The notes under the pieces were generated by a model, which saw nothing but the letters and a program-made list of their open reading frames with translations, was not told the origin of the DNA and ran no database searches. The translations under genes were made by a program, and so were the position numbers. This document shows positions 21,560-60,907 of a DNA stretch of 64,000 nt, piece by piece (position 1 is the first letter of the stretch; the number at the start of each line of letters is the position of its first letter). Source of the DNA: Savitreella phatthalungensis (taxonomy: Eukaryota); the NCBI GenBank assembly GCA_051599415.1, contig AP039700.1:248001-312000 (forward strand), in the 5' to 3' direction.

Positions 21560-22100
21560 CTGGATCGTGGTCGCAGTGAGAACTGCTAAAGCAAAGAGCT
21601 GGAGGATCAAAATTGTCAAATTTGTGCAAGGTCGGCCTGCTGCTATGGCGCGCGTGCCACGCGCTTTAGCCGTAAGGTCGGAAAGTTAAGGAGCAAAAGG
21701 TCGTTTCACCTCACCTGTACTCGTTAAAGATTGCCGATCGATTGATGATCTGGTCTTGGGCGAAAGCTCTCGTGACCTGTCGATGACTTTAGGTCAGGAG
21801 GACATGAGAAATCCTCGGAACAAGCTAATGGTTCTGGAAGCGGTCGAATGTCGACTTGCGATCCTGGCTGTGAAGTTGGAGTGCGTCTGACCTTTTGGAA
21901 AAGGAAGAATCTATGTAGAGGCGCGCGTGCCTAATGCTGTCGGTCGTTCGACGAGAGCGAGACTGGTCTGTGATGTGCTTGCTTGCTTGCTTGCAGACTA
22001 GTGTGAACAAGAACTACTTTTGAATAGCAACGGGGATTGGCAAGCGAAGCAGTGGGTGAGAGTGAGTGAACAAAGTTTGACCTTTGATTTCTCGTGACAA

Positions 22101-22252
22101 GTGAGTGAGTGAGTGAGTGAGTGAGTGAGTGAGTGAGTGAGTGAGTGAGTGAGTGAGTGAGTGAGTGAGTGAGTGAGTGAGTGAGTGAGTGAGTGAGTGA
22201 GTGAGTGAGTGAGTGAGTGAGTGAGTGAGTGAGTGAGTGAGTGAGTGAGTGA
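22101..22252. repeat. (GTGA)n microsatellite, ~38 perfect units
   Basis: Directly visible; source of the spurious THSL-repeat ORFs. Confidence 0.98.
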
Positions 22253-24680
22253 ATGAGTGTCCTGAGCATGCAATCAAAAGTTGTCGGATACGATGTTGAG
22301 GAGAGATTGGCTGGTGGAGCTGCTGAAGCGGAAAGGGGCGGCTAGAATGGAAAGAGAGTTGGTAGAGAGAGAGAGGGCAACTAAAAGTAAAAGTGAAAGT
22401 AAAAGTGTAAGTTAACCTGAACTTGAATGTGAAAGTGACAGTGGAAGAAAATTGGATACCGAGGATTAATGGTATGTTGGATGAAAAGGTGATGAAAAGG
22501 TAAAGAAGAAGATTTTGTTGCTCATTCAGCCCTTGTTGCTTCCTCCATCACTCTAAGGCTGCTTGTCGGGTGTGTTAATTTCTCTTCCGTGTATGAGTTG
22601 TCAGTCTCATCATAGCAGTGAGGGCGGTTGACGGTCGGGCTGATTTCTTTACTCAGGCCGGATGATAGGTGTCGAAGGTGTGCTCGATAGACCCTGGAGG
22701 CTTGTCACTGCACTCAAGCCCAAAGCCCTCAGAAGTATGGCAGGTGGGTCAAATTGATTCAACCGAGCTCAAGTTCATCATAATGAACTTGCAATCGTCT
22801 TTTCAACAGTTCTGAGCTTCAAGCTTCGGGTGCCCTCTTTTTCCAGGTGCAAATTCGATCCTTGTATCTGTGTAAACAGCAATATGGGAATCTTAACCTT
22901 TGGATGTGGCGCCAATCTCGTGACTCACGAAGCTAGTCTTGAATCTCTCTTGGCCTGACAGTCCACTCACCCGTCTTCGAAGCTGCGATAGGTGATGAAG
23001 TGATGTTGTCAGGATTATCACTCTGACTGGTGGACTTTCTCCTTCACTAACTCGGAAGGGACCTAAGGAGGAAGCATCCTTGGTAAAGCGGTCTCCCTCG
23101 TATGATACAGACTTCCGATTGATGCGCGCTCACAACGCATCCTTCAGATACTGTAGCTGTCCAGGGTCATCCCGAAAAGCCCAGAGCTCTAAACAGTGGA
23201 AGCTGCGCTGTCGGTCTGTGGTCATAGTTGTCACCGTTCTAGTGCCCGTCTCGCTAGCTGCCATCGCTAAGTAAAAGCAAAGCAGGATTGCGACTGTATT
23301 GCGGTACCGAAACGATCCGAGGTAGAGTACTCGGACATCCAGTCATCGAATGTGCTAGCTGTTGGAAGTAACATGCAATTCTGCCTATCACAGGAGCCTT
23401 CGGATCCACATACAGGCTTCAAATATCACCCAAGCACTTTCGGAGAAGCTCGTCAGTCAGTTGAATTCTATGTTGGCAGATTAATTCGCTTGGAAGCACT
23501 GTTTTGGGAAAGAACTTCTTTGTCCTGAACTCCTCTCACCTCAGACAGCAACGATTCTATTCTAGGATAACTGGTTCTTCCATAGTTCGTCATCCACTTG
23601 ATCGGTAGTCCAATGAAGTCTCATTCTCCTCGAATCAAATCAATAATGCATGAGCACCCACAGCATTCAGTCACTCATTTTACAATTCTCCCCGTCAACA
23701 TCCTCCTACCTGAATGATGCACGGGCTCATACGTTTCTCCTTTCTTTCACCTAGCTAGATATATAGCTAGCTCATATTCTTTCTCACCTGACCTGTCGGA
23801 TCACGGATCACGGGACATTATTCTTCCTACTACGGCAAGACAGCGATGTAGAGTCTCAAGTGAGCCTGTCGGCTGACACCCATGCTGTTGAATGATGATC
23901 CGCTCCGCAATCGTCCATGGATGGGACTGGCAATACGCACGCGACACTCCTCCGTCGTTTCAAGTCCCGCAGAAATAGAAAAATACCAATAATTCATTTA
24001 AGTCTCCAAATGCCATAGATGACAAGCGGACGTCATAAAGCCTGCTCATTTCAGCCTATGCCGTCGTTCTGCCACTCTCCAAGCGTTCCTTTGTATGCAT
24101 CCATCTCGTTATCTTGCATAATACTCGATTGCCGACATTGATTGATCTGGTAATTTGGAGGATGTGGAGGAAGTCGAAGTGCTGAATCTTTCATGCCCTA
24201 AATAAAACAGGCCCTTAAGGAAAAGGTTAATTCAAAATGCCGTCTTCCGGCACTGGTGGAGAAACCAGAGCTCCCGCTGAAGTGGAGTCATGGAGTGTCT
24301 GTATGAGTTAGTATGCACCACAGACACGCACATGTTGATAGATGGCCAGCTTTGCACGTCCGGAGAGTCTCGGGGACGGTGGCAAACAACAGTGATGTGC
24401 ATACCCGAGCAGATGAGTCTCGAGTCGATCACGTCGACATGGCGATTGCGACCTTCATTTCGTTGCAACAGTGTACCACGAAAGAGTTGCTCAACCACAC
24501 AGTTGTATATTCACATGCATGGGGAGCTTGGTCGGAAGATTGAATCTCTTATCCTGAGAGCGCTTACTTGCTCTTCTTGTCGTACGTGTCTTCGTAAAAT
24601 GCTTCTTCTTTTCTCTCTCCACGCTCTAACGCATGCCACGGCATTGTGCGTCAAAGGGTTCCCCTCGGCTCTACTGATTT

Positions 24681-26237
24681 TCAATCAAGTCGGAGAGTCT
24701 TGGATTCGCGCAAGGCCGCTGTAGGATCCTTGACCTGGTTTGATCGATGCTTCGGCCGGCTTTCGCCATCTTTTGAGGAACTCCCTCCCTCCTCTTCTTC
24801 GTCGTCCTCATCCTCCTCCTTTCCGGCGTCCTTGATCCGTTTGAGTTCACCGACAAACGAATTGCCCCAGTATGCGGACGTGTATTTGTGCACGTACTTC
24901 TCCAGCTTGTCAAAGTTGTCTTTCCGCTGGTCGTGCGGCAAGGTGACGGCTTCGTGGATGGCGAGTGCCAGGTCGTCCACGTTCCAGGGGTTGACGATGA
25001 TGGAGCCGTTCAGAGACTGGGCTGCGCCTGCAAACTCGGAGAGAATGAGTGAACCGTGACGCTCGCCCTGGCAGCACACGTACTCGTAGCTCACAAGATT
25101 CATGCCGTCGCGCGTGGACGTGATCAGGCATACGTCCGAGACTGCGTAGAGCGAGATCAGCTCGTCAAACGGCACGCTCTTGTGCATGAAGTGGATTGGC
25201 ATGAATTCGGCAGTGCCAAATTTACCATTGATGCGACCGACGAGCTCGTTGACGACGGCGCGCAGGTTCTGGTATTCTTCAACATCGCCGCGCGATGGTA
25301 CTGCCACTTGGACAAGCACCACCTTGCCGATCCACTCAGGGTGCTCCGTCAGGAAGACCTCGAGCGCGTGCAGCTTCTGCGGCACTCCCTTGATATAGTC
25401 CAGCCGATCAACGCCCACGATCAGCTTGATCCCCTTGAATTTCTCCTCAAGAGTCTTTATCCGTGCCTGGACCTTTGGCTTCGCCAGACCTTCTGCAAAA
25501 AGGCTCGGGTCGATGCCGATCGGATATGTGCCGACGTGAACCATGCGCCCATTGAACTCGACACCGTTCGGCAACGTTGGCAGCTTTAGGATGCGCGAGC
25601 ATGCGCTCAGAAAGTGCCGAGCATAATCGTACGTGTGGAAGCCAATGAGATCACATGACAAGACGCCCAGGAGAATCTGCTGACGAACGGGCAGGATGCG
25701 GTAAATCTCGGAAGAAGGGAAAGGGGTGTGGAGGAAGAAACCAATGCGGACGTTTTTGAACCGGTCTCCCATTTCCTCCCGGAGCATCTCCGGGAGCAAC
25801 ATCAGATGGTAGTCGTGTACCCAGATGATATCACCGTCTTCCACACCTTGCGGTCCATGAACAATGGCTCTCGCAAATGCCCTGTTTGCCTCCTGGTATG
25901 CAGCCCAGTCCTCCTCCAGGAAGCTGATCTCTCCCGGATGGTAGTGGAACAGTGGCCAGAGGATCGAATTGCTGAACCCATTGTAATGCCGATCTGAGGT
26001 CTCTTCATCGAGATAGACCGGTACAGTTGTGTAGTCACGCATCAAAGTCTCTTCTACCCCTGCGCGATCGGCTTCCGGCACCTCAAGGCCAGGCCAGCCG
26101 TACCAGGTGAATTTGGTAGTCCGCGCAAGACCGGCAAGGGAGGAAACAAGACCCCCTGCACCCTGTCCGAAACTGTATCCATGCTCGTCCTTCTTCATGG
26201 ATACCGGCATCCGGTTTGAAGCCAGAATGAGCTTCAT
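24681..26237 (-). CDS. TPS1: Trehalose-6-phosphate synthase
   Basis: Motifs SNRMP, GGLVS, HYNGFSNSILWPLFHY, WVHDYHL, GFFLHTPFPSSEIY, GVDRLDYIKG, RDGMNLVSYE and LSEFAGAA. Confidence 0.98.
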   Translation of the reverse strand: MKLILASNRMPVSMKKDEHGYSFGQGAGGLVSSLAGLARTTKFTWYGWPGLEVPEADRAGVEETLMRDYTTVPVYLDEETSDRHYNGFSNSILWPLFHYHPGEISFLEEDWAAYQEANRAFARAIVHGPQGVEDGDIIWVHDYHLMLLPEMLREEMGDRFKNVRIGFFLHTPFPSSEIYRILPVRQQILLGVLSCDLIGFHTYDYARHFLSACSRILKLPTLPNGVEFNGRMVHVGTYPIGIDPSLFAEGLAKPKVQARIKTLEEKFKGIKLIVGVDRLDYIKGVPQKLHALEVFLTEHPEWIGKVVLVQVAVPSRGDVEEYQNLRAVVNELVGRINGKFGTAEFMPIHFMHKSVPFDELISLYAVSDVCLITSTRDGMNLVSYEYVCCQGERHGSLILSEFAGAAQSLNGSIIVNPWNVDDLALAIHEAVTLPHDQRKDNFDKLEKYVHKYTSAYWGNSFVGELKRIKDAGKEEDEDDEEEEGGSSSKDGESRPKHRSNQVKDPTAALRESKTLRLD

Positions 26238-26934
26238 CCTGGTGATCTTTGTTCAGCTGATCGTGTAGGTGATGTGGTCGTCTGCTGAGCCGGAATGAAA
26301 TACACTTGCTTCCTTTATAGTCAATGTGGTGTTGAATATGCTACAAGTACTGCGTGTAGTAGATGAACTTGCCCACAGCTGACTCTGTGATTCACACTGA
26401 GCGAGTGCCGTTGCCGTTGCACGTCGCGTGACCCTTGATGATAATGCTTGATGAAAGAGCAAGTGGATGGAGAATGAGGCAGGAGTTGCTATTGCTGTTG
26501 TGGTTGCAGTTGAGCGTGGTGGAGGAGGAAAGGAAGATATGACGCCTGTGCTGATTTGGTTTTTCTTTCCAAGGATGAAATTGAGATTGCTTGAATGCAT
26601 GATCCGGAGTGATGCTCACTGGCTTGAAACCGTCGAGGTCGAATGCAGGAATGGATTTCTCAAACGGCCCCGGCGGTCGCCATGTGTCATGTGCCACACA
26701 GGTCGTGTGGACTAACGGCAGCTAGTGAAAGGCATAGGACTCCGCTCAAGGACGAAGCTACATATGATATCACATGTGAACGGAAATGGGCACCACTATA
26801 GATGAGGTAACTCTTCACATGTTGTCGTAAATACTGATCGGCTCCAAACCTTTGGGAGTGACCGGGTCTCATCACATCTTCACCTTGTCCATCTGGTCAG
26901 GAATCCAAACAAGGTCCAGCAATTCATCTTCAGC

Positions 26935-27867
26935 ATGTCGGAGGATGCGGCACTACAGATCTACCAGGACATGGCAAACATGGACAAGCAAGCATTTGGG
27001 AGGGGCAAACTGCCCGGGTGTATGTTCTGGGATCTGCTGGAGGAGTGTACAATGATTTTATTCCCCATGAATCCCACAACCAGGCGCTGGATTGCCGTTG
27101 TTGCGTCCCTCAGGTCTACCCATCCCATCCTAGAGAAGGGCATATGTGTGGTGAAAGCCACAATCTTTGACTCCATTGGCGACAACACCTCCTACAAGGA
27201 TCGCATGGAGTTTGACGTCGTGCAGCTCCTCACCTTGCTTGTCCAAAACAAGTCGTTATCGGTCACTCTTGACTGCGATGTGCATGTGCAAGTCAAAATC
27301 GAGTATGGCCGATGCTCCAAGCAACACAATGATGAGGACTGTGGCGTGCTGACCTCCGACAACCTCCTTCGGCTAGACAACCTCCTTCGGCTAGAACGAG
27401 ACGGGGAGCTCCCTCTGCCCATCACAGATCTGCCCATCACAGATCCCCATGAGATGCAACTTCATGGTGAGGAACTTCGCTGGACCACCATGGGGGAGAT
27501 ACGCGCAGCCTTTGAACGTCAAACCTTTGGGCCCTATGTCCGTCACCCTAAGAAGAAGCACCAAAAGACCGCACGTCGCATCGCAGCTTTGGAGGAGCAG
27601 GACCTAGACCGCATGACAGACACATCACCTTCATTCATTCCGCAAGTGCTGGCTCCAAAAGAACTGTGCAGCTCGCAACAGAATCTGACACAGCTCATCA
27701 TGGACCACTTAGCCATTTCTGGCGGATCTTCTACCTTTGGGTCAATCTTGAAGTCAGTGGAAGCCCAATGGCATCATTGGTTTGTCAAGAACAAGAAGTC
27801 CCCAACTTTACTTGTTCAAGCGCTACTGAGAGCCTGCAAGGCGTTGTTCCAGGTGGTTGACAATTAA
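26935..27867 (+). pseudogene. Ulp1/C48 SUMO-protease-like domain plus winged-helix-like domain (fragment 1)
   Basis: ILFPMN...RWIAVV (Arg where the catalytic His of the HW motif is expected), IFDSIG and KQHNDEDCGV. Then LTQLIMDHLAISGGSSTFGSILKSVE...FQVVDN. Confidence 0.7.
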
Positions 27868-28827
27868 TGCATCTTGCGTCCGATGCCCGCCACATTCACA
27901 ACAGAGCAGATTGCTGCAATCCATGATCCAGTGGACAATCCAGATACTGTCACTGTGCCTGGTCTTGACAGCTATGAAGAAACAGATCTTGTGGTGGCGG
28001 TGTTGCGGAAGAGCCGCGGACACATCAACAATCACGCCGTACAGGCTCACAAGCGCAGACCTCAAGAGATTGAGGAGGCCTTCTATGCTAGGTACTCCAA
28101 TACACCAGAAAGATGCATCGAGGTCAAGAATTCTGCCCACTTAGACACAGTCCTTGACAGTGGAAGGCTTGGATGGTATCCACTGCCAATAGAGCCGGTT
28201 TCCAGTCGCGCAAGGTTCCTGGAGCGCAACAATCCCATAAACTCGGACTGCCTGGAGCTGCTCCAAGGCGCCAATTGGCGCGGCCTGAGCGTGCGTCTCA
28301 TTGCCATTGGATGGGATGGGATCCCAACAAATCCAGAGACGTTTGCCTGGCTAGCAGAGACATCTCAGGACATCAACTTCACACTCACACACATTGTTTG
28401 GGGCAGCTCGATTGTCGATCATCCAGATCTTGCTCAGTCAATAGGCCTCAATTGCTTGGACAGCAATCAGCGGTCAAATGTCATTGCCTCATGGCTTTGC
28501 CATCATGACGAGGAGAAAGACCTGACATGGCTTCACTATAGCGTCAAGTGCCTTGCCTCCTTGCGGAGTGGCAACCTGACCTTGATAGAGCTAAACCAAG
28601 TAACAGCTCATCACTTATGCCTCATCTTCTACCTCTACAAGATTGACTGTGCCAACGCTTTGCAAGGCGCAATGGAGAAGAGCTGGGGCTACAAGGACAA
28701 AAGCTTCAAGAAACTGGGCAAATTTCTTGGTTGCTATCTAGCAAGCACATGGACGCGCCTCGGTCTGCGTCTGCCAACAGCCAACGATCGACCAGCCGCC
28801 AACAATCGATCACCTGCCATTGATTGA
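27868..28827 (+). pseudogene. Serine-recombinase/resolvase-like domain (fragment 2)
   Basis: VVAVLRKS (compare YaRxS), EPVSSRARFLER...LELLQ (compare ExvSG...RPxlxxll) and VRLIAIGWDGIPTN (compare lvVxklDRLxR), in resolvase order. Confidence 0.4.
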
Positions 28828-28839
28828 TCAGCTGCCTGA

Positions 28840-29823
28840 ATTCCAGCAGATCTTGATTGTACAGATCAATGCGCAACTCGAGAGGAGAGCAGATACCTCT
28901 GTCCAGTATGTGACAAGGAAATGCCGTTAGTCAAGGCACGAGGTCATCTGGGACGGCACATCGCATGCTCTGACAATGGTAAGAAGTGCCCTGTGACAAC
29001 ATGCACTCACACTATCTCAAAGTCGCATTGCCCTGCTATGATGAAGCATCTCAAGATCCATGAGACTGATGTGCATGGCAGGGATCGCCCGAGACTGGTC
29101 TGTGATGACTGTGGTGCCTGCTTCAAGCACAAGCATCAGCTTGTTCAGCACTCAGCAATCCACCAAGGAGAGTACGTCTGCAAGGACAGCAATTGCGGCA
29201 CTGCCGATGTTGTTCGCATCTTTGACAAACGCGGGTTAAAGGGCCACCAGAAAAAGATACATGGTCATCTGTACAAGCACCACAGTGCCTCAAACTACAA
29301 TCTGCCATATGTCTGCGGGCATTCAACCTGCCGAAAGGGATTCAAAAGCCTTCAGGCATTGCAAACGCACAATCGGCTTGGGCACAGACGTCATCAGACA
29401 AGAAAGGTGCCAGACAACCTTTTGACGGGTCAGAACACCAGTGACCATGCGAACAAGGCTACGAGTGAGAACACAAGCGGCGACCCGAGTCGGGACACGA
29501 GTAATCATGCAAATGAGGCTGCGGATGAGAATACAAGCGGCGATTTGAGTGGGGACACGAGTAAATATGCAAATGAGGCTGCAGGTGAGAACACAAGCGA
29601 AGATGCGAAAAGTGAGGACCCGAGTGAAAATGATCAAGACGCGCTGGAAGATGAAGACAATGGAGAGGCACTCGAAGACACAGACAAGGTAGATGCAACT
29701 GGAGACCAAGATGAGGAATGGAATTTGCCTTCAAGCTCTCCTGCACCACAAAGTAACGACAAGACAACTTTATGGCGCCAGGTGCCGGTGGCAAAATTTT
29801 GCCCGTGTTCCACTCCTGTGTGA
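28840..29823 (+). pseudogene. C2H2 zinc-finger array with acidic repeats (fragment 3)
   Basis: Five fingers: CPVC..HLGRH (begins upstream of the track's ATG), CPVTTC..HLKIH, CDDC..HSAIH, CKDSNC..HQKKIH and CGHSTC..HNRLGH. Confidence 0.8.
29433..29612 (+). repeat. Three ~60-bp coding tandem repeats
   Basis: NTSDHANKATSENTSGDPSR / DTSNHANEAADENTSGDLSG / DTSKYANEAAGENTSEDAKS. Confidence 0.85.
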
Positions 29824-30380
29824 TATAAACATGATGAACTCCGATCCCAAGACCATTCATTTATCAGCTTTTCAACTTCATGCCTTATCACTCTGTTGTC
29901 AGATCTCAAATACGTCATGATCGAACTGCTCGACCGACGGCACCATTGCCGGAGGCAGCTACGCAGCATCAATGCCTCACGCCCGCCGAAATTGCAGTGC
30001 TTTCAGTCAAACTTGAGTGAGGCAGATTGGTATAGTGACCTTAAGAGATAAGCACGTGCTCAAATCATCGACGTTGTCCAGACTTCTGTACTGCACGTGC
30101 ATGCAGTGGATCAAATGAGTCTGCAAATAATTCGTTCTACAAATTATATTTTTGGCAAATTATACTGAATTCATGCATTTAATCCTGCTTAAATAGAAGC
30201 TCCCAATGGCATGCACACGCGCTTCACACAGCGCGCGCCCGGCCCCAATTGCGACAACATGCATTAACACAATTATAACCCATGCTCTAAAGCAAACATC
30301 TCTCCTGACCATACCAATCTGCGAGAGATTTGTACATCTCCAAAGCTGTACAGCACAGCAGACAACACGACATTACAATC

Positions 30381-32708
30381 ATGTCAGGTGAGGACATTTC
30401 CCATTTCCACAATCGCGCAGCCGTGATCGAGGTGCAGTGAGACAGACGAGACGTTGAAGGGGTTGTGCCCGAAGCTGGACTTGGTTTCAGAGGATCTTAT
30501 TTTGAGGTGAACAAATGGGGTGGGTGAAGGTCTCGGGATGAAATTGATTCATGGAGGCACATTCTCTTTCGAGACGCGTCGTGCAGCTCCTCAAAGCGCC
30601 GGGAAAGGCAATACAGCGAGCGTGTACGCGATGAGGGGGAATCGACTTCATGCGATCTTGCGTCGCATGGCAGATCGAAACCAGCACGTGTCGTTCTCGT
30701 CGCTTCTATCAGGAGTCAGGGTGAAGGACATGCGCATGCACGCTGACGTCGGGCAATATGCTGGCAGAATCACTCTGTTACTGAATTGGATCATGCACCA
30801 AATATGCAGTCCCATGTATACGCATGTGGACAGACTCGCTCGTCTTCCATGACGAATAGACAAGTCACTTGATGAGTCTGCGAGAAACAAGACACCATCA
30901 TTTTCCCCTCCCCACTTTTGACCCTCATCTCCTCATTGCATCCTAACCTTGATTGACGACTGCGCAGTGCTCCTCAGTAGAGCGTTGGCGAAGGAACAAA
31001 AGCTGATATATTTGCAATAGCACCATTAGGACTGGCAGATCGGATAAGAGACTACTCTCCAGCACGTGACGGCAGATCGCGATATTCTGGCGGAGGAGGA
31101 GCAGCAGACGACGCACCTTACGACAGATATCAGGCCGGTTCACGAGGAAGGTCTCGTTCGCCTGGAGTCGACGCACGTCGCTACTCGTCTGGTCGGAGAG
31201 ACGACGATCGCTACTACGACGCAGGCAATTCCAGACCTAGATCCAGGTCTCCGCTTCGACGTGGCGGAGCTGGCGGTGACGTCGACATGCCAGACGGCGA
31301 TTTCCGTCGTGTCTACGTCGGTAACCTCTCCTATGACACCAAATGGACCCATCTCAAGGATCTGATGCGTGAAGGTAAGTCGCCCCTTCCATGGACCTTG
31401 ATCTCTCAGTACTGACCCGCACAGTTGGTGAGGTGCTCCACGCTGATGTCCTCACTCAGTCTACTGGTCGATCGAAAGGTTGCGGCATTGTCGAATTCGC
31501 TTCCGCAAGCGATGCGCGTAGAGCAATCCGCGAGCTGACTGAGACCACCTTCATGGGCCGCAAGATCTTCCTTCGTGAGGTACGTTGCCCGCCTGTGAGA
31601 CAAACATGATAGCAGGTTTACTGACATCTCGCAGGACCGTGAAGAAGGACGTCCACCACGCCACAACGCACCACCTCCGCGTGACGACTATGGTAGACGC
31701 GGCGACGATTACGGCCGCCGTGGCGGCGATGACTACGACCGTCGTGACCAGAGCTTCGAGGAGCGCAGACTGCCACCTGGTCGTGGCGAACTCGCTCCTG
31801 TCACTATCAACAGCCCGCAGCTCTTCGTCATGAATTTGTCTTACAGCGTCGATTGGAAGGAGCTCAAGGACTTCTTCCGATCCGCAGGCAAGATTGTCCG
31901 CGCTGACATCCAGACCGGCTCGGATGGTCGCTCGCGCGGCAACGGTATCGTCGTCTTCGAGACAGTCGGAGACGCTCAGAATGCTGTCGATCGTTTCAAT
32001 GGTTACGAATGGCACGGCCGCCGGATCGAGCTGCGTGAGGACAAGTTTGCCCGTGAGGGCGGTCGGGGTGGCAATGGCCGTGACGATCGTCGCGGTGGAG
32101 GTGATGACTATCGTGGCGATGGTGATCGTGGACGTCGGGAGCGTCGCAGGTCCGACGACTATGACGACAAGCCGTCTCGCGCACCAAGAAACGCCTCACC
32201 TCGTGCACGGAACCCATTCACCGACGACGCGCAGTCTTCAGAGACACCATCGGCTTCTATCATGGTCCGTAATCTCCCATGGGCCACCACGAACGACGAC
32301 CTGCTCGACCTCTTCACCACCACAGGCACTGTCGAGCGTGCAGAGATTGCATACGATCGTACCAATCGTCCTGCTGGCACAGCCGTCGTGCAATTCGCAT
32401 CGACTGAACATGCTCAGCAGACGATCGCCAAGCTCGATGGCTACAATTATGGTAACCGCCCGCTAATGCTGACATACGCGTCGTATGGAGACGACGTTGC
32501 GCCTGCAGCTGGATTAGCCGACGGAGAGGACAACGCCATGACCGGAGTGGATGATGGCGCAACTCCGGCCATCCCCAACGGAGCAGGTGACATCACCGCC
32601 TCGTCCATCCAGATTGCCAATGTCTCAGACGAGCCAGCCCAGCCTATCGAGCCTCCAGTGCCAGCTAGCGATGGAGACGACCTCGACGTCCCCATGCCAG
32701 CGGTCTAG
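30381..32708 (+). CDS. GBP2: SR-like mRNA-binding protein with three RRMs (Gbp2/Hrb1 family), 4 exons
   Basis: Exons 30381-30387, 31021-31374, 31425-31579 and 31635-32708. Introns are GTGAGG..TAG (633 nt), GTAAGT..ACTGAC..CAG (50 nt) and GTACGT..ACTGAC..CAG (55 nt). RS-rich N-terminus, RVYVGNLSYDTKW, GRSKGCGIVEF, LFVMNLSYSVDWKELKDFFR, GRSRGNGIVVF and VRNLPWATT. Exon 1 is less certain. Confidence 0.9.
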
Positions 32709-32805
32709 CGCTCGTTTCCGCATTGCCCTAGCGAGGTCTCTCAATTCATTTAATGCGCTTCCGTGATCTTGGTCGTTGTTTTTTCCCTGTCGTTAATGCG
32801 TCCCA

Positions 32806-33777
32806 TCAACTACCTCGACCGCCTCGTCCTCGAGATCCTCTGCCTCTGCCTCCACCACGAGACCCTCTACCTCCTCCACGGCCGCCTCTGCCCCTTCCTC
32901 CTGCTCCCGACGAGCTCCCGCCACGCGTGCCGCCTCTCCCACCAGCCGTTGCGCCATCGCCATGGAACGCTGTCGGTGGCGTATACGGTATCTCCTGAAC
33001 GCCCGCCATCGGATCTCTCTCGCTCTTTGGCAACTCCTTCCTCTTCCTCTCCAACTCGTCTCTAAGCGCCCTCAACCTGCCCACCCCTACCCTATCCCCC
33101 TGCACCGGCAACCCAAACACCCGCGCCCCACTCCCACCACCACTCCTCTCACCAGCCGGTAACGGACCATCCAAATCCACATCCCACTCCCTGCCCCCGA
33201 ACGCCTTGAACGGCCTGAGCTGGATGACTCCGTGGACGACCGGTGTGTTCTCTAGCAGGAGTTTAGCGCCTTTTGCGTCCACGACGGTGATTGCGTCACC
33301 TAGGGAAACACACTCGATCGCCGCGATCCGTGTACCTGCTGCGTCGGAGAGAATCAGCTTGAGCATGTGCTTGGGCAGTGAGTGTTGTGGGGTATCGTCC
33401 TCGTCGTCGTCGTCAGGGACATCCGCGATCACGCGCCGGTCAAGGGGCTTGTATGACTCTAGCGCACCATCCACACTATCCACCTGCCGGCCTAAACTCA
33501 CACCAATCTCCGAAGCCTCCACAACCTCGGCCCACACGGGACCCCGGACGACCCCTGCGGCGCCGTGAAGAGGTAGTGGGCTGGGGAGCGAGGTATGTGG
33601 GAGTGAGTGGGAGAGTGAGAGGGTTAGGAAGGCAGCGAAGACGAAAGCTCGGAGATCGTCAGGTGAGGGTGTTGGGTGTGGGACGGTGGAGAGGATGGTG
33701 GAGACCCAGGAGGGGGTGACGGGGATGGTGTAGGTGGTATTGAGCCAGGAGGCGATCGAGGATGCGCGTGGGTCCAT
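32806..33777 (-). CDS. RMI1: RMI1-like OB-fold protein with C-terminal RGG tail
   Basis: N-terminal helical block (VTPSWV...), EIGVS, and HMLKLILSD..G..IAAIE...GAKLLL..V.HGVIQL.P...FGG typical of the RMI1_N OB fold. Ends in about eight RG/RGG repeats. Confidence 0.75.
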   Translation of the reverse strand: MDPRASSIASWLNTTYTIPVTPSWVSTILSTVPHPTPSPDDLRAFVFAAFLTLSLSHSLPHTSLPSPLPLHGAAGVVRGPVWAEVVEASEIGVSLGRQVDSVDGALESYKPLDRRVIADVPDDDDEDDTPQHSLPKHMLKLILSDAAGTRIAAIECVSLGDAITVVDAKGAKLLLENTPVVHGVIQLRPFKAFGGREWDVDLDGPLPAGERSGGGSGARVFGLPVQGDRVGVGRLRALRDELERKRKELPKSERDPMAGVQEIPYTPPTAFHGDGATAGGRGGTRGGSSSGAGGRGRGGRGGGRGSRGGGRGRGSRGRGGRGS

Positions 33778-34417
33778 CGAAAGGGAGTAGAGAAGAGATT
33801 ATCAAGCAAGGTGACGGCGTTTGCAGAGGAGAGGCATCGTGGTAGGATGGTGGGCTAGTGATCGAGGTGCAAAGGAGATTAAGTGTAGGGAAATCACGAT
33901 CGAGCGTCATAGCTCCACAAATCACATGCACATGCATATGAACCACAAACAGGGAATTCATTTGCACCATAGAGGGGCAGGATGTGTCCATACAAATACG
34001 ATGGTGATCCACGCATTTTACAGGAAAAAGGTAGACTATCATTCAGGAAACAGGTCATGCAATAGCAGCTAAGGAAGTTCTTCGTGAGCATAAGCATGAA
34101 TGGGATGATGGTGGTGTTGGTACTTTTTGATGTGTTGATAGTAGTTGGTTGGAGGGGATTTGAGTCGATGTGATGGTTAGAAAATCCCGGAAAGAAAGCG
34201 GGCCGGGTGGACATGTATGGGGTGTGGTTTGATGAAGATGGCCGGATTGAATGGGTCGATGGTGTTGCCGAGAGGAGCCGTGGATGTGGTGTGATGTGCT
34301 GGGTTGACTGATTGGTTGAGGTATGCAGGATATGGCGCAGGGTAAAGAAAATGGAACGCTAAAGACGAGCAAGCAAAGTGGAAAGAGAAAGGTGGATCGG
34401 TCTGCTGATCGAGGCGC

Positions 34418-35908
34418 TTACTTAGCGGCACCCTGAGCACGAGCCTCAGTGGCACCCTGACGATTGCCCTTGTTCTGGCGCTGAGAAGGGATGCTGCCGG
34501 GAGTGCGTGGACCGTTGCCGTTGCCCTGCTGGCGACGCTCGACACCAGCGTTACCGCCGTTCTGCTGAGCCTGTTGCTGCTGGCGAGCCTTGGAGACGTA
34601 AGGCTTGTTCGGGTTGTCCTTGCGACGTTCCTCGACTGAGAGGAGCTCACCGTTACCAACGTCGATCTTGGACGCGCGAATGGCGGCGGAGCAGGAAGCA
34701 GCATCGAGGTAGTCGACAAAGCCGCAGTTCTTTGCACGGTTCAGCTCGACGGCCTTGAACTGGCCGAACTTGCGGAGGGCTGCACGGATGTCCTCGTCAG
34801 ACATCTTATTCGACACGTTCTTGAGGAAGGCAGACTTGGCTTGTGCATCAATTGGCGCGTTGCCTGCAGAAGACGAAGCGCTAGCGGCAGCCTGTCCGCT
34901 CGATGACGGGCCGGACTTCTCGTCGCTCGATGCTGCGGCAGCAGGGGCTGATTGTGCAGGGGTGGACGCAGGAGCAGCGACCTTCGATGGCTGGGGCACA
35001 GCAGCAGGCGAGGAAGCGGTCTGCTTTCCGGCATTGGCGGCTGCACGTGCAGCCCAGGACAGTGGTGCTGCGGGCTTGGCTGGAGCAGCAGGCTTTGCAG
35101 GAGTCTCTTGCGGAACGGCCTTCGGCAGTGACTCGACGGCCTTTGCATCGGAAACTGCAGCTGAAGCAGACGCATCAGGTGCTGGAGTCTCTGACGAGGA
35201 AGGCGTGGGGATAGATTCGGACGGCTTGGTGCGTTCGACCGAGCCATTCGTCTTGCTCTGCTGCTGCACGACTGGCTCAGCTGATGCACCGTTGGCCTCC
35301 TTGCTGGCGGCGACAGGCTCAGCCGGCTGGACTGATGCCGCAGGAGCAGCGGCGTCGTGGGAGAACAAGGTAGCGTCATTGCTGCCGCCGTTCACGCGAG
35401 CCTCGGCTGGCGCAGCTGCCTGCTCAAACTTTGCAGCGGAAGTCTGGGGAGCGGATGAGCTGTTGCTGGCCTGTTGCTGCGCGGTCGAGTCCTCCTCGTA
35501 GTCCGAGTCGACATCCTCCTTGAGGAAGCGGAATACGTCGTTGTAAACATAGAAGCCTGACTCCTGGGGAGCTAGGCAGAAGCTCTGGACGAATTTGCGT
35601 GCCTCCTGACCGTTGTTGGAGAGCTCTCCGAGGACCTGGATGAGGATGCCGCCGCCGATGGTTGATTGTGAGTCGACGTTGGAGACGAGGACCTTGCAGT
35701 CCTTGAGGTTGAGCTCGCTGATCTGTCCGTAAATCTCCTGCTGACCCTGTGCAAGCTTGACAGTTTCTCCCTCGATGCCATGAACTTTGGAAGAGAGCTT
35801 GGTGTAGAAGAGGTGTAGTTTTCCTGGTGTCTTGTTCATCATGGTGTAGTATTGCTGGACAAAGAGCCAGCCGATCTCACCGGGAGCATTGTTCTTGACG
35901 TCAGACAT
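34418..35908 (-). CDS. NTF2 + RRM protein, G3BP/Bre5/Nxt3 family
   Basis: NTF2 domain EIGWLFVQQYYT...LHLFY...ILIQVLGELSN...KFVQSF.LAPQ..GFYVYNDVFRFL, an Ala/Pro linker, and RRM AFLKNV...KNCGFVDY...VEERR. ATG 35908. Confidence 0.93.
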   Translation of the reverse strand: MSDVKNNAPGEIGWLFVQQYYTMMNKTPGKLHLFYTKLSSKVHGIEGETVKLAQGQQEIYGQISELNLKDCKVLVSNVDSQSTIGGGILIQVLGELSNNGQEARKFVQSFCLAPQESGFYVYNDVFRFLKEDVDSDYEEDSTAQQQASNSSSAPQTSAAKFEQAAAPAEARVNGGSNDATLFSHDAAAPAASVQPAEPVAASKEANGASAEPVVQQQSKTNGSVERTKPSESIPTPSSSETPAPDASASAAVSDAKAVESLPKAVPQETPAKPAAPAKPAAPLSWAARAAANAGKQTASSPAAVPQPSKVAAPASTPAQSAPAAAASSDEKSGPSSSGQAAASASSSAGNAPIDAQAKSAFLKNVSNKMSDEDIRAALRKFGQFKAVELNRAKNCGFVDYLDAASCSAAIRASKIDVGNGELLSVEERRKDNPNKPYVSKARQQQQAQQNGGNAGVERRQQGNGNGPRTPGSIPSQRQNKGNRQGATEARAQGAAK

Positions 35909-35954
35909 GGCTGTAGTAGGTTGAGAGATTGGCTGTAGTAGGTTGAGAGATTGG
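35909..35954. repeat. 22-bp tandem duplication directly upstream of the G3BP-like ATG
   Basis: ggctgtagtaggttgagagatt, two copies. Confidence 0.85.
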
Positions 35955-36367
35955 AAATGTGCAGAATGAGCCGCAAATGAGCGTGTAAGCGTGAATAGAG
36001 GGAGATGTTCCGGTGTGGATGAAGGCTCCTCCTGCACGTCACCAGGGTGTCAGAAGCAAGCGAGCGAGCTAGAAAGCTATTTGTAAAAAAAAAAAGCTCA
36101 GGGAAGAAGAAAATCTATAGAGAGCGTCGGGAAGGGTGTGCTCTTGATTAGATTTTCTGTGGGTGTAAGCGTGACTGACCGGATGAAAAGGAACTTGGCC
36201 TGTACGGTGATGTTGTCGCGCAAGAAGGGTGTTGTTGAAGTGCCTGATCTGTGTATGTAGATCTGTCAGGAGGGATGGGTGAGGATGTCAACCTGAGAGA
36301 AGAACAAGGACGAGTGATGGATGTCAGATGTTGGATGTAGGAATCTGACGGGTTGTGGATGAAGTAG

Positions 36368-36740
36368 TGATGATGATGATGATGATGATGATGTTGAGGG
36401 TGAAGAGGATGAAGGCAAGGATAGTGGTCTTGCTGGATGAGTGTGAGAGTGAGTGTAAGCGTGAATGTGTGAGAGGGAGATGTCCGTTGGTACGATTGAC
36501 ACAGTTGGAGGTTGGATAGACGTGGATAGACGTGGATAGACGTGGATGGGAGAGTGGTTGAGAGAGAAGGGATTGGAGGTGAGTGTAGGTGTGAGTGAGT
36601 GAAGGGAGTGACGGAGGACAAGGGTAACGTCGTAGGGATTGCTGAGAGTGAGAGTGAGAGTGACAGACGGAGTGTGTAAGTGAGAATGGTGTGAGTGTGT
36701 GACTGAGTGAGTGGGTGAGTGAACTCAATTTAGTGAGTGT
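36368..36740. repeat. Low-complexity leader region: (TGA)n, (GACGTGGATA)x3 and degenerate GTGA/GAGT repeats
   Basis: Directly visible. Confidence 0.8.
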
Positions 36741-38504
36741 GGATTCAACTGTGGCTAGAGATTGGAATTAGGATCCATGATGAATGCACATGCACATGCA
36801 CGGACCCCTTGAGCTTGTGAAAATGCTTCTGTTCAATTTCCGGTATGAGACTGTACTAGTTTGAGTGTATGAGTATGAGCGTGAGTGTGAGGGTGAGTGT
36901 GAGTGAATGTTGGAGATGGGTTTGATTGAGCACGAGTACTGTTGAATAGCTGCAGACCCTAGCTCTCTTCACCTACTCTCTCCAAACTGGCATTGCTCGG
37001 GCGAATAGAAAAGAGAAGCTACTCATTCAGGCTCTTGATTACACCTGAGCTAGATACAGTTTTGGAGTTTCATGAATGTTACCCTGATCAACATCTGGCG
37101 AGGGCTGTAATGAGACTCTAGCGGGAAGAAAAAATCAGTTTTTAATTTTTCTTGGGTGTTTCAGCTCCCACCATGCACAAAACCTTACCCGTCTCTCAAT
37201 TCATCACCATATGCGCCCTCCAGTTCTCATAGAAATCTTGTTGCTCAGTGTGCATGTGCTCAGTACATGTGTGAGAAAAGCGAAGACATATAAATTTTAT
37301 ATGATGAAGAAAAAAGATTGAACCTGAATGCACGCACGTACAGCAGCATCATAATATGCACGTACTGTACATCTGCACATTCGAAATCCATCATTCCGTG
37401 ACCAAGGATCGTAGATGGAAATACAGATCAGTTTTATATCCTGGCCGCTGATCTGCTGCACGGGTCACTGATCTGGGCACAGAAATAAGCTTCACTGGAT
37501 AATGTGCAGTGTCCAAGTGCAATCACAAGATGGCCATGGCACTGGTTGATCGCATGAGTATGAGAGTATTGAGTCTCTTACCTCTTTCCTCGTCTACTTC
37601 ATTCGAATTCTTCTACTCTGGTCAAAGGGTGCTTGCAGGTCGGCGAACGGTGCAGTAGATCAAGTCATCGTCGTGCATTCACTCGAGCAACTTCAGAATC
37701 GAGATTCAAACCTATGCACGAATTTACAAACGCTGGAAATACGATTGAATTATATGCACAGACTCACACTCTGTATATCCAGTCCACGAAATTAATGAAT
37801 CAATTCCTATGCAGACATCCATCATCCTTGATGGCTATAGTCAAACACGTACTCACTTGATCACTCACTCACCCACTCATTCACTCTTTCAGTCATTCAC
37901 TCATTCAGTCACTCATTCATTCACAGCAGAAGATACACATGCGTACAGATGCAACACGATTCAATCTACTAAACTCCTCTTGATTTTACTCAACCAAACT
38001 CTAAATTATACCTTTCAGTCTATAGTACACGGGAAAAGCAAATCAAAAAAGTGTCACACTCACTCTATCCCTATACAGCAGAGATCATCTACAACGCTCA
38101 TCTCATTTCCTCATCCTCTGACTCACTCGCAGCGCTCATTCGAACGTTGTCAAGAGGGACTCAGCTGCAACCCATCAACTGCCTTGAGCGATCGTCTTCC
38201 AAACGAGTCTGCTGCTGATCTTTTCCTGAGCAACTCGCATCCAACCCACCAAGTCAGACCTTCACAACTGCACACCCACATCGTCCGCAAAAGCATCATC
38301 GTAGCTCACTCATCACACTGGAGCAGACCTAACACGTGCACATCCCATCTCTCCTTCCATCTACACACTCGCGTACACATTTCACGCGCATACACACACA
38401 CACACATATACGCACGCACAAACACACATACAACCTACGCTGCATCCCAGGTCAGCCCTCCACTGCCACCTCACTCCTCCCATCCAGCTTCGATAGTGAT
38501 ACGG

Positions 38505-41500
38505 ATGGAGGACAGCCTTGAGCAGGCAGTCGAGATCGCGCTCAGACAAGACGTTACAGATCCATCGCTCAGGCAACAGGCCACAGATTTCTGTACACAG
38601 GTCAAGGACTCCCCTGACGGCTGGCAGCTATGTCTATCACTCTTTCAGCAGCAGTCCCGGCGCTCACAGAACAGTCGCTTCTTTGCCCTGCAAGTGCTAG
38701 AAGATGCCCTCAGACATCGTGCCCCACAGATCGGTGAAGCTTCGATCGACCTCATGCGGCAGGCGCTCATGCCTTGGCTCGCACAAAACCTCCTGACCGA
38801 CAATAGCAGCGCTGCCGCCGGCGTAGCCGAATATGACCCACCTTACCTGCGCAACAAGCTTGCAGAAATCATCTCACTTCTTTTCGTTCACTTGTACACT
38901 TCCACCTGGACCTCCTTCTTCCAGGATTTTTACGCTCTTATTCCCAAGAGCAGCAGAGCTGCAGACTTTTTCTTTCGTGTCTGTGTCTCAATCGAGCAGG
39001 AGATTGCAGATGTCCTCATCGTCCGTAACCAGGACGAGGCAAAGCGCGCCACACTCATTAAAGACGAGATCCGTGCGCGCGATATGGCAAAATTGCCAGA
39101 GGTCTGGTTCTCCCTGTTTGACCAGTATCGCGAGTCAGACAAAGGCATCGTAGCCATCGGACTCCGCGTCGTCGGAGCCTGGGCTTCCTGGATGGACATC
39201 AGTCTCATCGTCAACGAACCTTTCATGACCTTCCTGTTCAACCTGCTTAAGGACTCTTCGCTGAAGACGCCAGCTTGTGAGGCACTGATTGGCATCGTCT
39301 CCAAGAAAATGGCTCTTGCAGACAAGGTCCAGCTCATCTCACTCCTTAACCTGCCATCTCTCATGAGTGCTCTGGACAAGGACATCGAGGACGACCCAGA
39401 TTTTGCAGAAAACGTGGCAAAGCTGACGAACGTCCAGGTGGTAGCGCTCGCTCAGGCTTCACTCGCCGGGAATGCACAGCAAGCCATGGCCACACAAATG
39501 CTTCTGGACCTAGTTCCAAATGTCCTCCGCTTCCTGTCGAACGAGTACGACGACACCTCGGCCGCCGTCTTTCCTGCTGTCAATGATGTCATCCTTGTCG
39601 TCGGCCAACTAGTGAATGACGCAAACGCTCGTCGTTCCATGCTCTCCGAACTCCTCCAGGCGATCATTCTGAAGATGAAATACGACGAATCGAGCGATTG
39701 GGGCGACGAAGCGGACGCGGTCGAGGATGCAGAATTCAGAGAAATGCGCGCTCGTCTCCGGGTGTACCAGGACATGATCATGAATCTCGACTACGACCTC
39801 TACATGCGGGCCTGTCTCGAGCTCGTCTCGGGAACCTTTGCAGGCATGGGTAAGCACGATTGGCGTCAAATCGAGCTCGCCATGTATCAGCTATATTCCT
39901 ACGCAGAAGCCGTCAAGACACTGGCCCGCGATTCGCCAATGAAAAGTTCCGCCGTCGCAGCGCAAGACCGCATGCTCGATGATCTGTTCCGCTACGATGT
40001 CTCGCGCTTCCAGCATCCATCCGTGCAATTCCACTTCTTCGAAATCGTAAACAGGTACATCACTTACCTCGAGTCACGCCCGGATGCCATGCTCAAGACA
40101 CTAGAAGCCTTCATCGACGGCCGTGGAGCGCACCACGCACTGGCTAGCGTCCAGCATCGGTCATGGTATCTCTTCGCCCGTTTTGTAAAGTCGACTGGCA
40201 ACAAGCTGGGCAATGTGGCACATGACGTCCTCAACGCCGTTCAGGACTTGCTCGTGATCGAGCCCGCTCAGCAGGATGCTGCAGACGAAGGCAACAACAG
40301 CGACAGCGATGACTATGCACCTGCATCTGACCCATTCGAGAACAAACTCTATCTGTTTGAGGCCATGGGCACATTCCTCACGGCACCTGCTGTACCATCG
40401 CAGGAGCAGGCTGCGCTTGGCACCGCCCTTCTCGAGCCGCTCTTCAATAACATCGAACGTGCCGTCTCCCAGGGTGAAGGCAAGACGCAGGTCGAATTCC
40501 TGCAGCACAATATCTCAGCCATCGGCCGCTTCGCTCAGGGCTTCCCAGCCAACACAAGGCTAAACAGGAGTGACACCACGGCGTGGTCGCCAATCTTTGA
40601 TCGCGCAGCCAGCTATATTCTCGCCGCGTTTGACGCGCAGGTCGAGCAGTCTGCCATTCGCGACGCCGCGCGCTTCGCCTTTGCCAGACTGATCAATGTT
40701 GCGCCGGACGACAGACTGCTCCGTAGCATGCCGCGTCTGATACGTGGCATCATCGAGCACTCCGACATCAAGCAGCTCACCGAGCTCTTACCCTTCCTCG
40801 GCCAGATCATCTTCAAGCTGAAGGAATCTGTGAAGCCCGTGATTGACGAGACGCTGACGCCACTGCTCCTGCGCATCTTCGCCTTGCTGAACGCGCCCGT
40901 CAACGGCACCGACGACGTCGTACAGCTTGGAGACCTTCGTCGAGCATACCTGACCTTTGCACTCTCCCTGTACAGCAACCGGATCGACGACGTCCTCTTC
41001 TCGGAGGCCAATCGGGGTGTGTTTGAGCAATTCCTTGCGAGCGTCTGTCACTGTGCCGCTGGCAATCCGGACGACAAGCAGGATGGCACGAACGGCCCAT
41101 CTGGATCGTCCACCTCCGCTGCCGCTGCTCAAGCAGATGCGCCCACACAGCGCACCGCCTTTGCCGTCCTACGCGACGCCACAGCGACCTGGTGCTCGTG
41201 GGCGCCAGGACGCCCTCGTCGGGCAAATGCGGTCGCCCAGCCAGCACCAGGTAGCGTCTCCGCCAAAGGTGGATCTGGCAAGTCCAACAACAGCTCAAAA
41301 TCGAACGGTGTCGTTGCAACATCGAACGGTGTTCCCGCGCAGCAGACTTCCTCCGATGAGACTGCCCCGTTCAATCGCCCTCTCGATGGATTCGACGCTT
41401 ACGCCGGATCGACCATCACCCCCTTGTGCTTCGCCGTCGGCAGGTCTCTGGTGAGTGCAGGCCGATTGCGTGACGCTGGCGCTCAGGGTGTGTTGGGAGA

Positions 41501-41681
41501 AGCTGCCACGTGCCTCCGCCAGATCTGGCTCATGCGAGGTCCCCTGCCCATCACCGAAGCCCTACCACACCCACCCAACGCAGCCCAACATCTCCTCGAC
41601 GCACTCGAAAACTCAGACCTAAGGCAATTCAAACAACTCTTCAAAGAATTCCTTCAGGCAATCATCGCCGCCTGCGCATGA
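38505..41681 (+). CDS. LOS1: Exportin-T (tRNA export receptor)
   Basis: HEAT-repeat karyopherin with RFFALQVL, PPYLRNKL, IKDEIR, WASWMDISLIVN, IVSKKM, EFREMRARL, FFEIVNRY, RSWYLFARFVK and LYLFEAMG. ATG 38505. Confidence 0.92.
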   Translation: MEDSLEQAVEIALRQDVTDPSLRQQATDFCTQVKDSPDGWQLCLSLFQQQSRRSQNSRFFALQVLEDALRHRAPQIGEASIDLMRQALMPWLAQNLLTDNSSAAAGVAEYDPPYLRNKLAEIISLLFVHLYTSTWTSFFQDFYALIPKSSRAADFFFRVCVSIEQEIADVLIVRNQDEAKRATLIKDEIRARDMAKLPEVWFSLFDQYRESDKGIVAIGLRVVGAWASWMDISLIVNEPFMTFLFNLLKDSSLKTPACEALIGIVSKKMALADKVQLISLLNLPSLMSALDKDIEDDPDFAENVAKLTNVQVVALAQASLAGNAQQAMATQMLLDLVPNVLRFLSNEYDDTSAAVFPAVNDVILVVGQLVNDANARRSMLSELLQAIILKMKYDESSDWGDEADAVEDAEFREMRARLRVYQDMIMNLDYDLYMRACLELVSGTFAGMGKHDWRQIELAMYQLYSYAEAVKTLARDSPMKSSAVAAQDRMLDDLFRYDVSRFQHPSVQFHFFEIVNRYITYLESRPDAMLKTLEAFIDGRGAHHALASVQHRSWYLFARFVKSTGNKLGNVAHDVLNAVQDLLVIEPAQQDAADEGNNSDSDDYAPASDPFENKLYLFEAMGTFLTAPAVPSQEQAALGTALLEPLFNNIERAVSQGEGKTQVEFLQHNISAIGRFAQGFPANTRLNRSDTTAWSPIFDRAASYILAAFDAQVEQSAIRDAARFAFARLINVAPDDRLLRSMPRLIRGIIEHSDIKQLTELLPFLGQIIFKLKESVKPVIDETLTPLLLRIFALLNAPVNGTDDVVQLGDLRRAYLTFALSLYSNRIDDVLFSEANRGVFEQFLASVCHCAAGNPDDKQDGTNGPSGSSTSAAAAQADAPTQRTAFAVLRDATATWCSWAPGRPRRANAVAQPAPGSVSAKGGSGKSNNSSKSNGVVATSNGVPAQQTSSDETAPFNRPLDGFDAYAGSTITPLCFAVGRSLVSAGRLRDAGAQGVLGEAATCLRQIWLMRGPLPITEALPHPPNAAQHLLDALENSDLRQFKQLFKEFLQAIIAACA

Positions 41682-60158: not shown

Positions 60159-60196
<38 letters not shown>

Positions 60197-60907
60197 CGGG
60201 TCCATCAAGAAACCTATCAGGTTCTGCATTAGCTGGTCTTGGGCGACCATATTGCGCTGAAAGTTGAGCATTTCCGAAATGACCGTCTGATAGTTTTTTG
60301 TCAGCGTCTGGAGGTGGTGGTTCATGCCGGTACACATCTTATGGAGTGTCTCGATCTGGTGCTGCATATGCTGGACCTGGCCAGGGTACACGACACCACC
60401 ACCGCCACTCATGTCACCCATGTCGCCCGGCCCACCGCCCACACCACCATCAGTCCTAGCACGTTTCGCTGTGGGCGCCTTGCGCTTGATGTTCTCTAGC
60501 GAATCCTTGTTGTGGATCCTGAAGTTTTCGTGCTTGAACTCCCAGGTCCCCTCTCCGTACGGGTTGACCTCTCCATTCTCAGTGTTGTTGCGGACCTTGT
60601 GAAAGTCGTACTTGTTTAGTTGTCTCACGAAGGAAGCAAAGTTTGAGTGTTTGAAGTGCCGGGGCAAGATGGTCTTTGTGAATTCGTTGGTATCGAGGAC
60701 GATGAAGCTGTCTCCGAGATCGTTCCATCGGACGATATTCTCGTACTCGTGCTCCTCGAGCATCTTGAACAGCTTTTTCACGAAATCTGGCGAGCCCGAG
60801 CCACTGCCTCCTGAGGCATTTTTTTGGGAGTCGCCGTTATTGCTGCCCTGGTTGGACGGTTGATGAGCCATATGTGGTGGTACATTCGGAGCTGGCATAT
60901 GTGACAT
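58667..60907 (-). CDS. SKN7: HSF-type DNA-binding and response-regulator transcription factor (Skn7/Prr1)
   Basis: HSF domain DFVKKLFKML...HFKHSNFASFVRQLNKYDFHK, a coiled coil, and receiver domain VLLVEDD...DLVLMDIVMPNLDG...ILPKPF. ATG 60907. Confidence 0.97.
60136..60196 (-). repeat. CAG/CAA polyglutamine tract in SKN7
   Basis: About 20 Gln codons. Confidence 0.9.

Follow-up and report, generated by a model that had tools for sequence, protein, structure and literature searches.

Ulp1/C48 peptidase domains, which rely on a catalytic His-Asp-Cys triad plus a Gln, are frequent cargo of eukaryotic DNA transposons (MULE, CACTA and KDZ/Zisupton), where they are fused to or lie beside DNA-binding modules and where repeated, decaying copies are compositionally unlike the genes of the host. 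CpG depletion is typical of silenced repeats. Serine recombinases carry their nucleophilic Ser, part of an R-x-S motif, immediately behind strand 1 and an Asp-Arg...Arg motif after strand 3, corresponding to D67, R68 and R71 of gamma-delta resolvase. The IS607 elements are reported to have no terminal inverted repeats, no target duplications and an N-terminal DNA-binding domain (PMC6188088), and two further reports present IS607-like elements acquired from prokaryotes as the only source, until now, of serine-recombinase chemistry in eukaryotes (PMC3673617, PMC3627910). Here, we analyze a locus at positions 26806-30168 (plus strand) of a 64,000-nucleotide stretch of the Savitreella phatthalungensis genome (contig AP039700.1, positions 248,001 to 312,000; hereafter the window), in which a sequence-only reading had joined three open reading frames (ORFs) into a decayed polyprotein with an Ulp1-like protease, a winged helix, a serine-recombinase-like domain and five zinc fingers, and had proposed it as an undescribed mobile element. 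The analysis suggests that the locus is very probably a non-functional, dead relic, namely a 5'-truncated paralogous copy of a very large and rare fungal gene, and that its annotated ORFs most likely do not encode functional proteins. The parent gene may be part of a mobile element of a new type.

Translation of the locus in frame 1 is open except at TAA 27865, TGA 28825, TGA 28837, TGA 29821 and TAA 30049, exactly the five stops listed by the sequence-only reading. ORF1 (26935-27867, 310 amino acids), ORF2 (27883-28827, 314 amino acids from its ATG) and ORF3 (28921-29823, 300 amino acids), all on the plus strand, share this frame, with the first three stops between them. Relatives were sought by an exhaustive phmmer search of 1.84 billion cluster representatives, using as query ORF1 and ORF2 read through the stop as X. 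Just four matches were obtained, namely the window's own ORF2, which alone is annotated as a 314-amino-acid protein in the public record (P0002), and three long proteins: hypothetical protein KC331_g1787 of Hortaea werneckii (P0003, 1567 amino acids), hypothetical protein LTS10_007959 of Elasticomyces elasticus (P0004, 1869 amino acids) and a JGI/IMG record (P0005, 1861 amino acids). The E-values of the three long proteins were 1.2e-8, 2.2e-8 and 1e-4, and the matches spanned residues 941-1088, 1211-1366 and 1134-1277. These proteins define a rare, undescribed group of giant fungal proteins, intact in a few black yeasts and extremely patchy in distribution (three clusters among the 1.84 billion representatives). 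A word-indexed homology search returned no relatives for the read-through and, for P0003, just P0003 itself; domain alignment with longer lengths found just P0004, and two metagenome scans for loci of the relatives confirmed none.

The four-way alignment is colinear from the protease remnant through ORF2 to the fingers of ORF3 and covers the C-terminal ~1000 residues of the relatives, with which the window copy, a distant lineage, shares 21-24% identity overall. With tblastn, P0003 gave a single high-scoring segment pair in frame +1 (26884-28704, E 5.7e-18) that spans TAA 27865, P0005 gave three colinear ones in the same frame, one per ORF (E 2.3e-5, 6.0e-6 and 0.019), and P0004 matched 27949-28563. 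Since the alignment is colinear and tblastn crosses the TAA, the three ORFs are, as judged from the sequences, pieces of what was once one gene, in agreement with the single ancestral frame initially postulated. The pseudogene body, on the plus strand, accordingly extends over 26836-29820, its 5' limit being the point from which a paralogous contig described below matches the window; tblastn with the relatives detected no further copy elsewhere in the window.

In intact members, a long and mostly disordered N-terminus is followed by the Ulp1/C48 domain, a Cys cluster, a winged helix, an alpha/beta domain, a CxxC...CxxC ribbon and C2H2 or GATA fingers. The three relatives are true homologues of the window copy, colinear over the protease, winged helix, middle domain and fingers, but unlike it they are intact, extend 600-900 residues further at the N-terminus and have retained the protease His as well as the Cys cluster and the CxxC ribbon. 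The window copy, cut at 26836, is missing the N-terminal portion of its parent; rather than the whole polyprotein of ~1100 codons that had been proposed, the block is just the 3' ~55-60% of a gene encoding 1567-1869 amino acids. At the other end, the C-terminus of P0005 aligns just before the TGA at 29821-29823 and the last ~115 codons of the block (29824-30168) have no homology in the relatives by alignment or tblastn, so this TGA probably marks, exactly or approximately, where the ancestral frame naturally ended; extension of the polyprotein beyond it finds no homologous support.

The Ulp1/C48 protease remnant (26884-27354, plus strand; alignment columns 1046-1141) matches Pfam PF02902 with an E-value of 7.3e-5 and 23.1 bits against a curated cut-off of 20.7, which upholds the Ulp1-like assignment; the corresponding values are 27.2 bits and 4.1e-6 for P0003, while P0004 falls below the cut-off (E 0.0034), and a PDB sequence search with ORF1 gave chance-level rows only. 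The remnant retains a Q..N..DCG motif, but the His of the N-H-W motif common to all three relatives has been replaced by Arg, leaving the His-Asp-Cys plus Gln set of C48 peptidases incomplete. Both His and Cys persist in the relatives; at the Asp position, Asn is found in two of them. Immediately behind the protease Cys, where the relatives are gapped, the window copy carries an insertion made of two perfect in-frame tandem duplications (27358-27443, plus strand), 18 nucleotides repeated twice at 27358-27393 and 15 nucleotides repeated twice at 27414-27443. The Cys cluster that follows the protease in two relatives, with a spacing that looks Zn2Cys6-like when read by eye (no profile match), has been lost. 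The winged-helix-like region (27676-27930, plus strand) is broken by the first in-frame stop, TAA 27865-27867 on the plus strand, at a column occupied by Tyr in two relatives and by Phe in the third; the Gln codon presupposed by the TAA-to-CAA repair suggested earlier is therefore not what gave rise to this stop. Further on, the middle domain has gained an insertion of ~25 residues and lost conserved helices downstream, among the losses being a long conserved helix and the CxxC ribbon, and two in-frame TGA stops (28825 and 28837; 28825-28839, plus strand) lie in the linker preceding the zinc fingers.

The finger array itself (28894-29385, plus strand) was identified by direct reading as five C2H2-type units of the form C-x2-4-C ... 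H-x3-5-H, colinear with the fingers of P0005 (tblastn 28888-29385, E 0.019). The count of five given by the sequence-only reading thus stands at the level of readable units, but the Pfam zf-C2H2 match is weak (E 0.0095, below cut-off). As had also been pointed out, the first finger starts at 28894, upstream of the ORF3 ATG at 28921. The array is followed by an acidic, Ser/Thr-rich tail built of three 60-nucleotide direct repeats (29426-29605, plus strand), in a region (29418-29708) that is skipped in a paralogous contig. C2H2 arrays occupy the C-terminus in P0004, P0005 and the window copy and a GATA finger does so in P0003 (residues 1370-1407; PDB phmmer, E 2.6e-4), a difference that suggests swapping of DNA-binding modules within the family. 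Over the 135 columns that are invariant in the three relatives, the window copy keeps 62, changes 49 and lacks 24, and these figures support the description of the locus as a decayed copy.

To these comparisons with distant relatives can be added a closer one, drawn from the contigs of three coded sequencing runs (X1, X2 and X3) compared with positions 22400-38000. X1 and X2 come from the same sample, and X3 from another sample bearing the same organism label; X3 contributed two short pieces only, less than 95% alike and both on TPS1, the gene upstream of the block. A paralogous DNA contig of 5643 nucleotides in X2 aligns with 26836-27321 (65 differences, 12 gaps) and continues upstream into unlike sequence; its last 30 letters (ten codons), translated manually in frame, resemble a family motif that the relatives carry ahead of this position. 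Further paralogous X2 contigs match the finger region, skipping 96 and 289 nucleotides. The sample thus contains at least one further diverged copy, at a depth equal to that of the main contigs, which supports the sequence-only interpretation. The exact X2 contigs are interrupted at 27321, 27629, 28922 and 29295, the behavior expected of words common to several copies. Similarity between the copies is confined to coding sequence, from about 26836 to at least ~29780, and the indels separating them measure 6, 6, 6, 96 and 289 nucleotides. Among the differences listed for X2, 51 have G/C in the paralog and A/T in the window, against 18 of the opposite kind, and the 23 differences listed at 26876-27015 fall 6, 8 and 9 times on codon positions 1, 2 and 3 (a small sample, 40 of 123 rows). 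The ATG of ORF1 (26935) reads GTG in the paralog.

The base composition of the block also sets it apart, as previously proposed. Its GC content is 0.50, versus 0.56-0.62 in the neighboring genes, and its CpG observed/expected ratio of 0.61-0.64 takes ranks 1-3 of 123 3-kb windows (median 0.99), making the pseudogene the most CpG-poor 3 kb of the window. TpG/CpA observed/expected ratios are raised in the block (1.45-1.47), and we infer CpG-to-TpG decay as one source of the damage. Classical repeat-induced point mutation was considered and dropped, as the TpA/ApT (0.39) and (CpA+TpG)/(ApC+GpT) (1.65) indices are the opposite of what it produces. The second most CpG-poor stretch of the window lies at 35500-39000 (observed/expected 0.64-0.71), upstream of and overlapping the start of an exportin-T gene (37809-41681); within it, simple GAGTAA/GTGTGA-type repeats occupy 36085-37860, where the contigs of X1 and X2 break and then continue into unlike sequence.

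Run X1 informs on the transcript. One of its contigs, 9211 nucleotides long, spans 26781-36095 and thus covers both the block and the downstream RRM gene (31066-32708, plus strand; Pfam RRM_1, E 8.3e-35). Both GT..AG introns of that gene (31373-31422 and 31578-31632, of 50 and 55 nucleotides) are gone from the contig, with joints at 31372-31423 and 31577-31633, and are retained in X2. No joint occurs within 26781-31372, which indicates that splicing does not remove the stops in the assembled form and agrees with the intronless block described earlier. With a further copy in the sample and a contig that crosses the stops unspliced, neither of the observations named beforehand as refuting the sequence-only interpretation was made.

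Several observations weigh against the view that the block is simply dead. ORF2 is annotated as a protein in the public record (P0002), an ATG occurs soon after each stop and the region is present in cDNA-like contigs, so that a residual or new function is possible. X1 behaves as complementary DNA and X2 as DNA, but X1 is labelled 'DNA?', its cDNA character is read from the two removed introns only, and the contigs give no transcript level, strand or ends. At 21-24% identity to the relatives, the window lineage is distant enough that some of the 'lost' invariants may be lineage differences rather than decay. Finally, most of the indels between the window copy and its paralog are multiples of three (6, 6, 6 and 96, with one of 289), which suggests that their divergence took place partly under selection for an open frame.

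If the block is a relic, a second question concerns the nature of its parent. One account, which we regard as possible although short of probable, makes the parent an ordinary, fast-evolving host gene encoding a nuclear DNA-binding regulator with a SUMO-type protease, and the window copy a pseudogene born of a partial segmental duplication, with nothing mobile involved. The domains are those of a regulator (Zn2Cys6-like Cys spacing, winged helix, C2H2 or GATA fingers), copy number is low, the similarity seen between copies is limited to coding sequence and, in the three full-length relatives, Pfam detected no family of transposases (DDE, KDZ or other), of reverse transcriptases or of tyrosine recombinases. 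Such a gene would sit less easily with the extreme patchiness of the family, with a partial copy inserted into the intergenic region between divergent housekeeping genes, with a CpG depletion like that of silenced repeats and with the presence of an Ulp1 domain, a frequent transposon cargo.

The claim that the locus derives from a mobile element is favored by the existence of at least one further copy and disfavored by the absence of terminal repeats in 26000-31200. In this alternative, which we consider unlikely, the parent is an undescribed eukaryotic DNA transposon whose transposase consists of the winged helix and the resolvase-like domain, of serine-recombinase type and preceded, like the IS607 enzyme, by its DNA-binding domain, and what remains in the window is a truncated, dead copy. 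The presence of two or more diverged copies in one genome, the extremely patchy family and a CpG-poor island within a run of housekeeping genes are consistent with it, and the missing ends are not fatal, IS607 elements being themselves reported to lack terminal inverted repeats and target duplications (PMC6188088). About one extra copy is visible, though, neither element ends nor target-site duplications nor an empty site came to light in the window or the contigs of the three runs, and the low copy number, the coding-only similarity and the lack of recognizable ends fit an ordinary duplicate about as well as a mobile element.

The recombinase reading concerns the middle domain, encoded by ORF2, and the fold evidence behind it is weak. 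The domain's family-specific alpha/beta core (27961-28563, plus strand), delineated by phmmer, tblastn with P0004 and AlphaFold2 models compared by VIA-align, has a predicted resolvase-like topology. Invariant residues comprise R-x-S right after strand 1 (28006-28014), E-P-x-x-S, (W/F)DG..T, W-x-H and H-L-C. The models were built from a four-sequence alignment, with pLDDT (predicted local distance difference test) values of 59 and 66, and 50 rows per model were considered in the structural comparison; with the longer model, serine recombinases account for 5/50 rows. Rows of this kind, each given here with its three VIA-align values, are 2mhc (TnpX; 6.8, 4.4, 114), 9iu2 (Bxb1; 6.7, 3.8, 113), 3bvp (TP901-1; 6.5, 3.8, 120), 3guv (resolvase family; 6.0, 6.2, 129), 3g13 (putative conjugative transposon recombinase; 5.6, 5.1, 128), 9dxd (serine integrase; 5.5, 4.1, 116), 1hx7 (gamma-delta resolvase; 5.3, 3.3, 99), 4bqq (phage serine recombinase; 5.3, 4.4, 119), 5cy1 (Tn3 resolvase; 5.1, 5.0, 112), 6dgb (IS1535 TnpA, IS607-like; 5.1, 3.4, 90) and 2rsl (gamma-delta resolvase; 5.0, 4.0, 109). 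The listed alignments all start between model residues 5 and 10, within the strand terminating in R17-x-S19; the R-x-S after strand 1 is present in 4/4 members, with structural alignments starting 7-12 residues before it and a register that differs by ~2 between rows.

Sequence and fold searches did not extend this resemblance to an established relationship. Foldseek gave nothing at E <= 0.001 for the middle-domain models in the PDB (two models) or BFVD, Pfam (any of the four members) and PHROGs gave no match at E <= 10, PF00239 (Resolvase) included, a PDB profile search returned 0 matches, ESM Atlas offered no usable match, and hhalign, run with the family against an alignment of 12 resolvases from E. 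coli and phage records, reached a probability of 0.13%. Following the third strand, every member has (W/F)DG(L/T/I)(T/S/P)T, without the Arg residues of the D-R-x-x-R motif found there in resolvases, the equivalence of position being taken from the order of secondary-structure elements. The serine-recombinase-like label is therefore fair for the predicted topology and one motif, without amounting to a demonstrated kinship. A reading of the domain as an SGNH hydrolase, which also has a Ser after strand 1, was rejected; no such chain occurs among the 50 structural rows and the motif fit is loose.

Comparison with the described systems leads to the same reservations. With Ulp1-carrying DNA transposons the family shares a C48 domain associated with DNA-binding modules and the occurrence of repeated, decaying copies whose composition differs from that of the host genes; it departs from them in that Pfam detects no transposases (DDE, KDZ or other) in the three full-length relatives, that 26000-31200 contains no terminal repeats and that about two copies are visible. 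IS607-family TnpA differs in that the family shares with it no sequence or profile similarity and no D-R-x-x-R motif; the protein is ~10x larger and includes a protease and fingers, and no TnpB/Fanzor partner was seen. With the large serine recombinases (TP901-1, Bxb1, TnpX and phiC31), the resemblance is weak and at the level of the fold only, domain order and context differ and no homology to their recombinase-domain/zinc-ribbon regions was shown. The literature search returned no paper joining Zisupton with Ulp1, and among the papers listed none, judged by title and start of abstract, describes such a serine recombinase/Ulp1 fungal element. The most specific version of a mobile origin, in which the intact relatives are divergent serine-recombinase-type transposases of an unrecognized, low-copy class of fungal DNA elements with an IS607-like domain order and neither inverted repeats nor target duplications, the window holding a dead copy, appears very unlikely.

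That the three ORFs are separate working genes today, or are joined by splicing or stop read-through, is highly improbable, for although ORF2 is annotated, each ORF has an ATG and the stretch occurs in cDNA-like contigs, no joint was found in a contig that removes two real introns nearby, the ORF3 ATG cuts the first zinc finger and that of ORF1 is GTG in the paralog, the protease His is lost and conserved segments are deleted, and the exact ORF1 and ORF3 proteins are absent from a collection of 15 billion proteins.

Returning to the truncated, paralogous relic, its history is probably as follows. A low-copy parent gene, selfish or simply duplicating, would have given rise to a partial copy that starts midway through the protease domain, extends to the 3' end and now sits between TPS1 and the RRM gene. 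The copy has since drifted, acquiring three internal stops and slippage duplications, losing conserved segments by deletion and becoming depleted in CpG. An origin as a retrocopy was dropped, no poly(A) remnant being seen on reading 29824-30200.

The analysis resolves three "hypothetical" ORFs into one explained pseudogene and brings to light a very rare group of giant proteins from fungi, with a central domain that has no match among the sequence families of Pfam, PHROGs or the PDB. Were the middle domain a working serine-type recombinase, the family would represent a native eukaryotic class of elements with this chemistry; if it is not a recombinase, the locus is an ordinary decaying gene duplicate that matters mainly for annotation.

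The block lies between two divergent housekeeping genes, as initially reported: the trehalose-phosphate synthase gene TPS1 of family GT20 (24681-26237, minus strand; Pfam PF00982, E 6.7e-189) and, on the plus strand, the RRM gene described above, called GBP2-like in the sequence-only reading. The remainder of the window consists of housekeeping genes encoding acetate kinase, exportin-T, a mitochondrial carrier, GPP34, a septin, POM152, an RNB nuclease and an HSF-type response regulator. A dense repeat occupies 22100-22252, where GC skew is strongly positive (0.69 at 22000-22499). The response-regulator ORF (58667-60907, minus strand) combines HSF-type DNA-binding and receiver domains in a Skn7-like architecture and is an ordinary fungal gene, and the acetate kinase gene (637-1968, plus strand; E 4e-90) belongs to a family that is patchily distributed among fungi.

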